Of a stretch of 64,000 bases of DNA, positions 11,472-20,250 are shown piece after piece. A program made the position numbers and the translations under genes. Below the pieces are notes generated by a model. It was given only the letters and a program-made list of their open reading frames with translations. It searched no databases and was not told the origin of the DNA. The number at the start of each line of letters is the position of its first letter. Within the stretch, counting starts at the first letter, position 1. Origin of the DNA: Methanobacteriota archaeon (GTDB taxonomy: Archaea > Methanobacteriota > Methanobacteria > Methanobacteriales > Methanobacteriaceae). The stretch is taken from NCBI GenBank assembly GCA_963787255.1, contig CAWBCJ010000001.1, positions 32,001 through 96,000 on the forward strand, given 5' to 3'.

Positions 11472-11661
11472 AAAAAATTGTTAAAAAAAGATTCACCTCA
11501 AAAATATCATGTTAGGCTTAAAGAAGTGGATAAGGGGATTGGATATTGATTTTTCTGCTTTTTTTTGCACTGTTTTTTTTAAATTTTGTATTATAATTGT
11601 TTTTTGCGTGTTTTAACTATCATTTACATAAGATTTAAATACTAAAAAGGTAATAAAATAA

Positions 11662-11760
11662 GTATGACTAGTATTACAAATTGTGGTCTGTTTTATGTTC
11701 AGCCCAGGGAAACAAGATAACCCTGGGCACCCCCTCCGTTAAAACTATATTATTTTTGAT
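11662..11760 (+). ncRNA. Candidate sRNA A (ends approximate)
   Basis: TATA 11634-41, GTAATA-N16-TATTAC 11650-77, hairpin GCCCAGGG/CCCTGGGC 11702-28, then CCCCTCC; homologous to the 20.2-kb locus. Confidence 0.45.
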
Positions 11761-11856
11761 AAATAAGATAAAAACTAAACCACATTTTTTTTCTATTCAA
11801 TTTTTAACTTCCCATTTTTTTACTTAGAAAAAGTTGTATAATCCAATTTTATCATA

Positions 11857-11884
11857 GTATTATATTTTATATAATTTGTATTAC
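11857..11884. promoter_or_regulatory. GTATTA-N16-TATTAC operator-like palindrome spanning the TATA box of the Rieske gene
   Basis: Spacer contains TTTATATA. Confidence 0.5.
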
Positions 11885-11928
11885 AAATAGATAGTAATGA
11901 ATAAAAATAATAATATGGTGATTACTAT

Positions 11929-12276
11929 ATGAGTTTCGTGGAAATTGCAACAACAGATGAATTAATGGATGGTACTATGAAAATGGCTACAATTGAGGGG
12001 CGTGAAATCCTGTTAGCCCGAATTGGAGACAATTATTATAGCGCAGATAATCGCTGCCCCCATATGGGCGGTAACCTATCAATGGGCAAACTAAACGGAA
12101 CCGTAATAACATGCCCTCGACACCACAGCCAATTTGACCTAACCGATGGCCATGTAATCCGCTGGACAGACTGGACCGGACTAAAATTATCTATAGGTAA
12201 AGCATTAAAGTCACCTCGACCCCTTAAAACCCATGAAGTCAAAATAGAAGAAAATAAAATAATGGTCGACCTATAA
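11929..12276 (+). CDS. Rieske [2Fe-2S] ferredoxin
   Basis: CPH...CPRH motifs. Confidence 0.92.
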   Translation: MSFVEIATTDELMDGTMKMATIEGREILLARIGDNYYSADNRCPHMGGNLSMGKLNGTVITCPRHHSQFDLTDGHVIRWTDWTGLKLSIGKALKSPRPLKTHEVKIEENKIMVDL

Positions 12277-12452
12277 AAAAAAAAGTTTTAGGGATTAAGC
12301 TTCCAAAGTTTCATTTATATATTCCATATCTTATTTGCTTGGAATTAATTCGTAATGATGCAAGTAGTAAACTCATGAATAAATCCCGTTATTAAATATT
12401 ATATGAAAAAAATTAATTAAAAAGAACTTAAAAGTTGGAGGTTTAAAAAAAG

Positions 12453-12755
12453 ATGAAGAAAATAGCTATAATAGTGGCTTTAATGCTAGTTTTAGGAGTA
12501 GTATTCATATCAGGATGCACTACAACTCCAACAAATACTACCGGAAACAATAGTGGACAAAATAAAAGTTCAGGCGTACCGGGATACAGCACAGGACAAA
12601 TAATAAGCATTGGATCAGAAAACATTGTATCTGACTTGAATCAGGAAAATCCCATGATTCATAGGGATACTAATCATTTAAACTTATATTCCCACTTTTT
12701 TTTGAAAACTAATAAAAAGAGAATCAATTTCAAAAACAAATACCAAAAAAAATAA
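12453..12755 (+). CDS. Lipoprotein N-terminus, probably truncated
   Basis: GGAGG RBS, ISGC lipobox; the tail looks like read-through into intergenic DNA. Confidence 0.45.
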   Translation: MKKIAIIVALMLVLGVVFISGCTTTPTNTTGNNSGQNKSSGVPGYSTGQIISIGSENIVSDLNQENPMIHRDTNHLNLYSHFFLKTNKKRINFKNKYQKK

Positions 12756-12865
12756 TAGATAACCCAAATTAAAATTATAATCAACCCAATATAAGCATAT
12801 TATCCTATCAAAATGGTCTATTTAGAGCACTTAAAACTGGTAATAGTTAAGAGAATTAAATACAA

Positions 12866-17008: not shown

Positions 17009-18763
17009 ATGGCCAAGTACCGATGCACAGTTATGTAACTATGTTTATGATGAAGAAAAAATGGGCACAAAATTCGATGAACTACCAGATAACTGGAGAT
17101 GCCCAGTCTGCAATTCTCCAAAAAGCGTATTCATAAAACTAGATACAGAAGAATTCATACCTGCAGAAAGTACAGTTTCAGACATTATGATCGAACAAAT
17201 GGCCGAATGGGGCGTTAAATACGTTTTCGGAATCCCCGGCACATCCACACTAGGCGTAATCGATGCTATTAGAAAAAATGAAAAAATAAAGTATATACAA
17301 GTAAGAAATGAACAAACAGCAGCATTTATGGCATCAGCCTACGGCAAACTCACCGGACACGTAGCCGCATGCCTAACCGTAGCAGGACCCGGAGCAACAA
17401 ACCTCACCACAGGACTATACGATGCTAAACTTAGATCACGCACCCGTACTAGCATTAACAGGCCAAGTAGAAAGACATAGAATTGGTACAGGCGCCACTC
17501 AAGAAATCGACCAGCATTCCTTCTTTGAACCCATATGCGTCTATAACAAAACAATTATGTCTAAAGAACAGTCCACAATTCTAATTACTAAAGGCATTAA
17601 ACATGCCCTAATGGAAAGAGGAGTAGCCCGCATAGGAATACCCAACGACATACAAAAATTACCCTATAAAACTAAAATTAAGGCTTTTGAAGGTAATCTT
17701 GCCAACCTAGCCGTATTACAATCCCGAACATACCTCATAAATGCAGTGCAAGTAATCGATAACTCTAAAAGACCGGTAATAATAGCAGGATTTGGAGGTA
17801 TAAGGCAAGGAGACAACATAATTGAGTTTGCAGAGAAAATAACCGCACCCATTGTCACAACATTCAGGGGAAAGGGAGTAGTAGATGAAGATCATCCCCT
17901 CTACATGGGAAGTCATGGAGCTATAGGATCTACAGACTGCCTCCGAACTTGTGCAAAAATCAGACCTCTTAATAGTTATAGGTTCCTCATTTTCAGACCA
18001 AACAATGATTCCCAAAAAAAAGATAATACAAATAGATATTGATCCAATAATGATCGCTAAAAATTATCCCGTTGAAGTAGGACTACTAGGAAACAGTGCA
18101 GAAATCATTCAAGAACTATTAAGCCTGGTAAAAGAGCGTAAAGACAATAATTACCGCGAAGAAATGAAAAAATTAAAACAAGAATGGATAAAATTACTAG
18201 AAGAAGAAATAGACGCCGACAAAACGCCAATAAGGCCCCAATACATTATTAAAACACTTAATCAACGTTTGGATGATGATGCCATAATCGCTTTGGATGT
18301 AGGAGAAAATGCATGGTGGTTTGGCCGTAACTTCTGGATGACCAAAAAACAGGAAGTGTTATTGTCTGGTTATCTGGGATCTATGGGATTTGGTCTTCCC
18401 GCTGCAATGGCAGCACAACTTACATATCCAGATCGCCAGGTAGCATGTATAACTGGAGATGGTGGTTTTGTAATGGTTATGGGAGATTTTTTAACGGCTG
18501 TAAAATATGAACTTCCTATAAAAATATTTTTACTAAATAATAAGCAACTAGGAATGATCATGCAAGAACAAAAAGTTGAAAACTACCCTAATTGGCAGAC
18601 AGAACTCCATAACTGTGAATTTTCAAAATATGCAGAAAACTGCGGCGGTGTCGGAATAAAAGTTGAAAAAGCAGAAGAATTAGAAGAAGCAGTCGATGAA
18701 GCACTTAAACTAAAAAAACCAGTTATAGTAGATATTAATACTGATCCCCAGAGATTTTTATAA
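17009..18763 (+). CDS. Rubredoxin-fused thiamine-diphosphate enzyme, pyruvate oxidase-like (three frameshifts)
   Basis: [52 protein letters not shown]. Confidence 0.85.
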
Positions 18764-18809
18764 AAAAAGAAATCTAAATCATTTTTTGTGGGATAAAGGA
18801 GTGATTATA

Positions 18810-19109
18810 ATGATGGATAAATTCGAGGAAAAACTTAATGAACTGGCACAAATGAGTGAAGAAGATAAGAATAGATCTCTAGAAGAAATTAAAGGAGATT
18901 GTGTATGTCCAATTTGCCCAACTTACAATGAATGTGCAGAAAAAGCCGATGAACTAATATTCTGTATAATGGGAAAAAGTAAAAATTGTATTAGTGAAGA
19001 AAGAAGTTGTATGTGTCCTAGTTGCCCCTTTGGACAAAAGCATGGAATTGGAGTTAAATATAATTTCTATTGCATACGTGATTCAGAAATGGAACAACGA
19101 AAAAAATAA
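18810..19109 (+). CDS. DUF2769-type Cys-rich protein
   Basis: CVCPICPTY..C...C..G...C...CMCPSC...YC. Confidence 0.8.
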   Translation: MMDKFEEKLNELAQMSEEDKNRSLEEIKGDCVCPICPTYNECAEKADELIFCIMGKSKNCISEERSCMCPSCPFGQKHGIGVKYNFYCIRDSEMEQRKK

Positions 19110-19279
19110 TATGACTTAAATAGCCAATACTAAATTCTTCTATTTGAGCTGATTAGATAAATTAACTAGTCAGCTCTTAAACTAATTATAAAATAGTATT
19201 ATTTAGCTTACTGTTAAACAATCCAAAGTATAATTAAAATGCAATTTAAGTATTAATAATGTCTGTTACTTCCCACTTT

Positions 19280-19543
19280 TTATTCTAATATGTTTTCTTC
19301 TTGAAATTTTCCATTTAGTTTTTTTCCTGCTTCATATTTTGCTCTTTTTAATCCTTTTTGTAATTCAAGACTTGCATTTAGATGATCTGCCATTAATTCC
19401 CTTGCTAATTCTTCATTATTAAGTTCTTCATCTGTAGTATATCCAATAATAGCTAATAATGATTCTTGCCAATCGTTATATTCTTTTGTATCTTCAAACT
19501 CTGTTGTTATGTTATCATTACTCATAAATAATACACGCTCCAT
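19280..19543 (-). CDS. Hypothetical acidic helical protein
   Basis: Open frame with plausible composition. Confidence 0.6.
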   Translation of the reverse strand: MERVLFMSNDNITTEFEDTKEYNDWQESLLAIIGYTTDEELNNEELARELMADHLNASLELQKGLKRAKYEAGKKLNGKFQEENILE

Positions 19544-19652
19544 ACATTATATTCTAAAAAAATACTTTTCTTATTCATTCCTTAAACCTTTATCCACTAA
19601 CCTGCAAATAGATAAATAACATTACTCCCCGTAATAGAGCCATTCTCACCAT

Positions 19653-20066
19653 TCATAGTCCTATCAGGCATTGTATTTCTTCTTTTTCTACAGATATTTC
19701 ATTAACTCTCTTTGGAGTTTTCTCTGGAATTCTGTTATTGAATGAGCTTAAGCGTGTTTGTACATCAAATTTAATAAGGAGGTCCATGTCTTCTTGTATG
19801 AGTTTTATCCAGTCTTCTATGTGTTCTAAATCCATTGTGGGGTTGGGGGTTGAGCTTGGATTTAGAGAATCCTCTATTATATGTTTAACAACATTTAGGC
19901 TTTGGAAGGTTTCGTTATAGAATTTATCAAATTCTTTGAAGGGGAAGATGATTAGATCTTCATTTTTTTGGAATACTCCGGGATTGTAGAAGACTGTTTC
20001 ATTATCCTGGTATTTTATGACACTTAATCTCATACTAATTTGGACCTCCTTATTAGGTGATGTCAA
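19653..20066 (-). CDS. Hypothetical protein
   Basis: ORF; GGAGG precedes the internal ATG at ~20033. Confidence 0.55.
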   Translation of the reverse strand: MTSPNKEVQISMRLSVIKYQDNETVFYNPGVFQKNEDLIIFPFKEFDKFYNETFQSLNVVKHIIEDSLNPSSTPNPTMDLEHIEDWIKLIQEDMDLLIKFDVQTRLSSFNNRIPEKTPKRVNEISVEKEEIQCLIGL

Positions 20067-20181
20067 TCCATTATATTGAAACTAATTATTGGTAGTGGTT
20101 GTGGTAGAGAGCGTGTGAAATCTAATACTATTTCATGAAGTGTTATAAGAAGATATAAATACTTTAAAAGTAATAAATTAA

Positions 20182-20250
20182 CTAGAATGAGTGTTACAAT
20201 TCCATAGTATTTGTCCATGGGAAAGGATCTCTTGGACGCCTCCTTTTTAC
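20182..20250 (+). ncRNA. Candidate sRNA B (ends approximate)
   Basis: TATA 20153-61, GTAATA-N16-TGTTAC 20170-97, hairpin GTCCA/TGGAC 20213-37, then GCCTCC and a T-run. Confidence 0.45.

Follow-up and report, generated by a model that had tools for sequence, protein, structure and literature searches.

Candidate small-RNA genes under an operator of NikR-box geometry in a Methanobacteriaceae assembly, with predicted pairing to translation start regions

In enterobacteria, the metal-sensing repressor Fur controls the small RNA RyhB, whose targets are messenger RNAs (mRNAs) of the regulon and which also exerts feedback on Fur. Methanogenesis relies heavily on nickel, through hydrogenases, carbon monoxide dehydrogenase and methyl-coenzyme M reductase and, to our knowledge, small-RNA regulation has barely been charted in Methanobacteriales. 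Here we describe two related elements, copies 1 and 2, which we propose to be metal-regulated small-RNA genes. They lie in a stretch of 64,000 nucleotides (the window, C1:32001-96000) of the Methanobacteriaceae assembly GCA_963787255.1, which comprises 29 contigs and 2.47 Mb with 33% GC. Two other described systems resemble them. NikS (HPnc4160/IsoB) of Helicobacter pylori has, according to a review, a promoter bound and repressed by NikR in response to nickel, and it inhibits translation by pairing with mRNA leaders (PMC8322730). In Methanosarcina mazei, sRNA41 and sRNA154 are intergenic RNAs whose anti-ribosome-binding-site sequences mask the ribosome sites of their target mRNAs, as a review states (PMC5867862).

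The likeness to NikS lies in a NikR-repressed small RNA that pairs with mRNA leaders, NikR binding and expression being predictions in our case. However, NikS is bacterial and shows no sequence or structural relation to our copies, which have no match in Rfam. Its targets are virulence and outer-membrane genes and it varies through a T-repeat, whereas the top target predicted here is nikR. With sRNA41 and sRNA154, our elements have in common that they are intergenic in a methanogen and carry anti-ribosome-binding-site sequences. Those two RNAs were demonstrated experimentally, while ours are predicted from sequence; they respond to nitrogen and not to metal, belong to another methanogen order and have no detectable similarity to our copies. 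The likeness to Fur/RyhB is one of logic only, as regulator family, metal and domain of life all differ. No paper on a NikR-controlled RNA in archaea was found in the literature searched, subscription journals being outside its coverage.

We propose, as an evenly balanced reading of the sequence, that copies 1 and 2 and a paralog on contig C25 (copy 3) are small RNAs under NikR-type control that would clamp translation start regions. Each of copies 1 to 3 would be a small independent gene, with a non-coding RNA of about 65-95 nt as its product. Five elements make up such a gene: an archaeal TATA promoter; across the start site, a 28-bp palindrome with the geometry of a NikR box as operator; a 5' spacer that is short and variable; a GC hairpin; and a single-stranded, C-rich tail with CCUC(C/U), after which comes an oligo-T terminator. 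A metal-loaded NikR-type repressor sitting on the operator would keep the RNA genes off. Upon derepression, the RNA would clamp the start region of a messenger by pairing at two points, its 3' tail at the Shine-Dalgarno sequence and its 5' spacer at the start codon, while the hairpin between them stays folded; this clamp would block ribosome binding. The best predicted target of copy 1 is the nikR messenger, encoded 38 kb away in the window; if copy 1 does target nikR, regulator and RNA would therefore form a mutual-repression loop.

An earlier note on this stretch, made from its letters, had aligned 11630-11679 with 20150-20199 without gaps as a shared TATA box and operator. That alignment holds at every position it named, with 39 of 50 bases identical. 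When the copy-1 50-mer was slid across all 4,937,094 genome positions on both strands, the background reached a maximum of 33/50, at 2 positions. Only copy 2 (39), a variant on contig C4 (39), the C25 paralog (40) and the variants of copy 1 (48 and 49) scored above it. Contigs C2, C3 and C4 are 88-96% identical variants of parts of the window (region 8000-25000) and carry extra copies of copies 1 and 2. These second copies fit several strains or species binned in one assembly, which is 95% complete with 4.6% contamination. We handled the three contigs as near relatives within the same assembly and not as independent paralogs; they inflate copy counts.

The start of copy 1 (~11664) was placed at TATA start + 30, and the remaining features are listed in Table 1. 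The earlier note had also described a GC-rich hairpin with a compensatory change, followed by CCTCC, in each copy. The exchange of C-G for U-A at the second stem pair is real, and CCTCC is present behind both hairpins. Folded alone, copy 1 reaches -16.8 kcal/mol (z -2.7) and copy 2 -11.4 kcal/mol (z -1.45, unremarkable by itself), and the tail is unpaired in both. A scan for bacterial-type intrinsic terminators returned 0 sites in the copy-1 or copy-2 region, which is expected because the T-run is not adjacent to the stem. Two alternative arrangements were rejected: a loop-tail pseudoknot, which by eye is feasible in copy 2 only, and a minus-strand reading (GGAGG complement plus short frames), which is not kept among the copies.

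Two further paralogs were found in the genome. Copy 3 is intact (C25:12183-11982, minus strand) and 70% identical to copy 2 over 200 nt by BLAST and nhmmer against the genome, while copy 4 (C26:40696-40742), recovered with a covariance model, has a decayed promoter and tail. The hairpin is kept in all four paralogs. At its second pair, copies 1 and 3 have C-G where copies 2 and 4 have U-A; at the fifth, copy 3 has U-A and the other three have A-U. Every copy folds alone with its tail free. Selective conservation was observed between the window and its 88%-identical variant C2. Response-regulator genes are 93-94% identical between the two, and the intergenic DNA upstream of copy 1 is 74.5% identical. 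Within copy 1, the promoter/operator is kept at 49 of 50 positions, the spacer at 72.7%, the hairpin stems at 16/16 with an altered loop and the tail core at 22/23, and divergence sets in after the tail core. The pattern suggests that exactly three segments are under constraint: promoter/operator, stem and tail.

The main rival explanation, which we hold to be doubtful but serious, is that the elements are relics of segmental duplication. A promoter and a terminator would have been copied along with pieces of response-regulator and small-gene cassettes, the hairpin and T-run would at most act as terminators or insulators, there would be no trans function, and the target matches would be chance. 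The copies do lie amid repeated cassettes. Response-regulator paralogs occur on C1, C4, C6, C25 and C26, decayed copy 4 sits straight after a response-regulator stop codon, and copies 2, 3 and 4 share a downstream block that is the 3' end of a neighbouring ~59-codon gene on the opposite strand. The copy-2 BLAST query also matched this separate conserved block. The ~59-codon family has no Pfam match and a very conserved C-terminal end, and is present in many genomes of the genus, often in several copies; elsewhere in the genus our element does not adjoin it. Two observations speak against plain duplication: the promoter/operator, stems and tail core are kept as they are amid 72-75% identical DNA, and stem pairs show compensatory changes among the paralogs.

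The same stem changes bear on a second alternative, a DNA-level element, in which a protein would bind the GC inverted repeat as a palindrome, or the unit as a whole would be a small mobile insertion. In its favour, the family is multicopy and lineage-restricted, and short similar words of AACTAT type flank copies 1 and 3. However, the stem changes preserve pairing and not a fixed half-site, terminal inverted repeats are absent, and nhmmer over the genome with default filters returned the known copies only, so that we regard this alternative as highly improbable. As a separate observation, GTTTTAAC (11610-11617, upstream of the copy-1 promoter) and GTTAAAAC (11738-11745, in the copy-1 tail) are reverse complements of each other, which could be chance in AT-rich DNA.

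Judging from sequence, each unit has its own promoter and an end at a T-run, separate from the downstream coding gene, and the elements look like stand-alone short transcription units without a conserved open reading frame. It is improbable that they are instead cis-acting leaders or attenuators, whose hairpin and T-run would end transcription early before the Rieske gene and the DUF2769-hemerythrin genes. Both window copies do point at downstream genes 170-210 nt away, and these gene families carry the same operator elsewhere. Nevertheless, 3 of 5 distinct loci have a convergent gene next to the element, so the elements are not 5' leaders: a ~59-codon gene faces copies 3 and 4, and the C2 variant has a 179-codon membrane-protein gene, also convergent, between copy 1 and the Rieske gene. 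This speaks against the possibility that the earlier note had raised against itself, namely that the elements are 5' untranslated regions of the downstream genes. Its remark that the next genes have separate TATA-like boxes also stands, as these were seen by eye at ~11873 before the Rieske gene and at ~20410-20440 before the first DUF2769 gene; the Rieske gene has in addition its own one-mismatch operator. Rieske orthologs (67-87% identity; 6 upstream regions in 5 other genomes) have short, unrelated upstream DNA without the element, and Rfam gave no riboswitch or leader match. The 179-codon gene (C2 locus L065:780-1319, minus strand), which has no counterpart in the window, resembles the manganese exporter MntP by eye.

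Leaderless micro-ORFs, in which an AUG at the inferred start would encode a tiny peptide, have only the slightest probability. An AUG does occur at or near the inferred start, opening 18 codons in copy 1 and 6 in copy 2. These frames are unrelated, so that no reading frame is shared, as the earlier note had said; their lengths and sequences vary between copies, and copy 3 has no AUG but AUA at the corresponding place. Moreover, a 2-base deletion in the C2 variant shifts the copy-1 frame, and thus no peptide is conserved.

The copies share a palindrome that is a real motif, specific in its spacing and built like a NikR box. In the genome, 7 loci have GTAATA-N16-TATTAC, compared with 0-2 loci for any of 23 other spacings; allowing one mismatch gives 55 sites at N16 against 16-34 at eight other spacings tested. 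The preference extends to the genus: 22 other genomes hold 73 sites at N16 against 25 for the reversed control, while spacing 17 gives 24 sites against 30 for the control. A survey of NikR boxes describes inverted repeats of 27-28 bp, their arms of 6-7 bp standing about two helical turns apart, and lists the types GTATGAT-N13/14-ATCATAC, GTGTTAC-N13/14-GTAACAC and the reversed GTAACAC-N13/14-GTGTTAC (Rodionov et al. 2004, PMC545781). Our operator, a 28-bp inverted repeat GTAATA-N16-T(A/G)TTAC, has this geometry. Its arms differ by one base (T for C), and the regulon here appears broader in metal and redox functions, with ZIP, ferritin, Rieske, DUF2769, hemerythrin and response-regulator genes. 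Compared with the reversed delta-proteobacterial type, the arms agree at 5-7 of 7 positions; identity with the published half-site is limited to the right arm of copy 2, GTGTTAC.

Perfect palindromes stand between nikR and a divergent CBS-domain gene and over the TATA-like box of a response-regulator gene (Table 1). A one-mismatch site lies 45 nt from cbiM(nikM), between this gene and cdhA, and perfect or one-mismatch sites also precede ZIP transporter, ferritin-like, another DUF2769 and response-regulator genes. Most sites adjoin other metal or redox genes and not nickel transporters. The genome has two NikR paralogs and, according to one report, a NikR homolog of Methanothermobacter is a suspected zinc sensor (PMC3087415). 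The label of NikR-like operator used in the earlier note is reasonable because the palindrome is spacing-specific, has sites near metal genes (nikR, cbiM(nikM)/cdhA, ZIP and ferritin) and has the published box geometry; control by NikR itself is suggested by analogy.

Some observations on these regions stand apart. The nikR promoter region (window 49875-50040, minus strand; loci L107-L127) is strongly conserved across the genus. Most of 22 nikR upstream regions carry two AATATTGTT-type words upstream of the TATA box and GTATGA...GTAATA between the TATA box and the Shine-Dalgarno sequence, which may be a second, perhaps autoregulatory, operator. Two extended subtypes, GTAATACAAA...TTTGTATTAC (also at N17) and GTAATAAGGAT...ATCCTTATTAC, account for many of the N16 sites in relatives; they may be sites of different regulators or a repeated element.

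Complementarity was assessed over 2371 crude start regions (-30 to +12) of open reading frames of at least 70 codons with a Shine-Dalgarno-like word. GGAGG, named in the earlier note as the ribosome binding site of this genome, is among the common motifs (342 of these regions, and GGTGA 390). Apart from the copy-1 loci themselves, the nikR Shine-Dalgarno region is the one place in the 2.47-Mb genome that has the 11-nt complement of the copy-1 tail. When the 94-nt copy 1 was cofolded with all start regions, nikR came out on top at -28.3 kcal/mol, the runner-up reaching -22.6. The top rank for copy 2 (-25.2, runner-up -21.6) went to a DUF4389 gene on contig C23 that has a one-mismatch operator 33 nt upstream. 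In both predicted complexes the hairpin stays folded, the tail lies on the Shine-Dalgarno sequence (-6 to -16 in nikR, -8 to -17 in DUF4389) and the spacer extends across the start codon (-5 to +12 and -3 to +10, respectively). Complementarity of the RNAs to target start regions is thus found by computation, and their effect on translation would follow from it. Contrary to the expectation for duplication relics, the rank-1 targets of both copies fall within the 33 of 2371 start regions that are operator-linked, whereas among 90 shuffled tails the top match was operator-linked in 2 and never nikR (best nikR rank 25). When CCTCC was fixed and the flanks shuffled, nikR was matched in 4 of 1000 cases. 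The copy-2 tail has a 10-nt complement in 17 start regions against a shuffle mean of 2.7.

The earlier note had suggested that trans-acting RNAs block ribosome binding sites in a nickel-sparing response. The first part is upheld to the extent that the copy-1 tail specifically matches the nikR ribosome site, while nothing points to hydrogenase, mcr or a nickel-sparing response, and cdhA came up beside a one-mismatch operator site and not among the RNA targets. Within the genus, the G that extends the nikR pairing from 10 to 11 positions is found in this genome only, among the 22 nikR upstream regions. Counts of the 10-mer pattern of an anti-nikR element in relatives were like those of the control; two extra 10-mer matches (G020 and G003) were discarded, being another gene's ribosome site and a coding region.

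Several points weigh against a family of NikR-controlled clamps, and the first concern its range. In 40 relatives, BLAST with both copies as queries found only short matches, mostly AT-rich; none covers hairpin and tail, and 8 promoter-type and 8 downstream-block loci were inspected. MAFFT failed to place the hairpins in structural register and, for this reason, the covariance model R1 was built from three variants of copy 1 and R2 from the matches of R1. Both recover copies 3 and 4, and copy 2 is not above noise (11.6 bits with R2), which shows the model to be insensitive. Hence it is the context, together with the link provided by copy 3, that supports homology of the copy-1 and copy-2 hairpins. 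In 150 family genomes, R2 gave 8 weak matches (best E 0.06 per genome), and the 6 inspected were tail only. In Rfam, only two transfer RNAs passed the gathering thresholds over the whole window, and nothing meaningful appeared around either copy at E up to 10, whether riboswitch, leader or known small RNA. The covariance-model and Rfam searches proposed in the earlier note thus brought no credible match in those 150 genomes and nothing relevant in Rfam. A scan for the promoter/operator pattern hit 5 genome-contig and 10 metagenome-contig loci, all chance AT-rich matches where the hairpin is not present. Taking Rfam, the 40-relative BLAST, the 150-genome model and two pattern scans together, copies were found in this assembly only, as duplication relics would also be. 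No conservation outside this genome was found in the genomes searched, an outcome that the earlier note had named as speaking against its own proposal; only the variant contigs of the same assembly carry copies.

Other points concern expression, the repressor and the targets. The sequencing runs listed for window 11400-21300 were 5 DNA-type soil metagenome runs from 2 studies (shares 0.05-0.26), with no RNA run among them. The analogy with NikR is only one of geometry and gene neighbourhood. Of the perfect sites listed, not one is close to nikR in five relatives (G020, G005, G009, G019 and G014), and in another (G001) one lies ~1.9 kb from it. The family also drifts, as the decayed promoter and tail of copy 4 show. 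The tail of copy 3 reads CCCUCU instead of CCUCC. The tail-only duplex energy for nikR (-23.9) is equalled by the best match of 5 of 20 shuffled tails, and such unexceptional energies suit relics as well. Furthermore, the C2 variant has not kept the spacer that is predicted to pair at the start codon of nikR, and the 24 best targets of copy 3 include no operator-linked gene. The copy-1 tail has further long matches at a polyprenyl synthetase and a gene of unknown function, both unrelated; the copy-2 tail also matches Rrp4, and the set of start regions is crude.

Table 1. Positions of the elements, operator sites and associated genes (numbered in the window unless a contig is named)
Feature	Position	Strand	Description
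Copy 1 promoter	11630..11641	+	A-rich stretch resembling a B recognition element (BRE), and TATA box TTTAAATA at 11634-11641
Copy 1 operator	11650..11677	.	Perfect GTAATA-N16-TATTAC palindrome, about -14 to +14 of the inferred start
Copy 1 inferred transcript	11664..11757	+	~94 nt; both ends inferred from promoter geometry and T5 run
Copy 1 hairpin	11702..11728	+	GCCCAGGG/CCCTGGGC; 8 bp stem, 11-nt loop
Copy 1 tail word CCCCTCCGTTA	11731..11741	+	Complementary to the nikR ribosome site
Copy 1 CCTCC	11733-11737	+	Anti-Shine-Dalgarno word
Copy 1 T5 run	11753..11757	+	Inferred archaeal terminator; T-run also in the C2 and C3 variants
Copy 2 TATA box TATAAATA	20154..20161	+	Register equal to copy 1
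Copy 2 operator	20170..20197	.	GTAATA-N16-TGTTAC, one mismatch
Copy 2 inferred transcript	20184..20248	+	~65 nt, or ~77 nt if the end is the second T-run at 20255-20260; from promoter register and T5/T6 runs
Copy 2 hairpin	20213..20237	+	GTCCA.GGGA/TCTC.TGGAC
Copy 2 tail	20239..20248	+	CCTCC (20239-20243), then T5
Perfect palindrome	10484..10511	.	Over the TATA-like box of response-regulator gene 10549-11004
One-mismatch palindrome	11857..11884	.	Over the TATA box of the Rieske gene (11929-12276)
Perfect palindrome	50045..50072	.	Between nikR and the divergent CBS-domain gene; 227 nt from nikR
nikR gene	49369..49818	-	NikR_C (E 8.5e-31) and ribbon-helix-helix
nikR Shine-Dalgarno region	49824..49834	-	Predicted pairing site of the copy-1 tail
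Relic of ~59-codon gene 3' end	20295..20345	-	Gene intact and convergent beside copies 3 and 4
Intact ~59-codon genes	C25:11856-12035; C26 ~40790-40975	+ (C25); - (C26)	

Between the two copies, a gene for a fumarate-reductase-type flavoprotein (14598-16860, minus strand) is split into three pieces across frames (FAD_binding_2, FAD_binding_2 and Succ_DH_flav_C). A gene for a rubredoxin-thiamine pyrophosphate enzyme (17061-18763, plus strand) is likewise in three pieces across frames. Both are either pseudogenes or the product of assembly frameshifts; an intact 586-codon paralog of the latter is found at C18:32825-34585, with a one-mismatch operator upstream. Positions 20459-21789 hold three tandem cysteine-rich DUF2769 paralogs and then the hemerythrin gene, and more DUF2769 genes are found at 18786-19109 and, with an operator-like site, at C29:100812.

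In summary, the family of candidate small RNAs appears young and lineage-restricted, and one clamp is probably directed at the nikR start region. It is tempting to propose, as a possibility short of probable, a toggle between regulator and RNA: a NikR-type sensor would repress young paralogous small RNAs, each with its own clamp fitting start regions of the same regulon, and one of them would shut off nikR, which would be the first such circuit described in archaea. The operator statistics alone define a genus-wide regulon. If the proposal is true, this would be a concrete circuit joining a metal sensor to translational control with feedback on the sensor. It would also mean that small-RNA genes arise by local duplication within one species and retarget fast, as the spacer and tail differ in each of the four paralogs.

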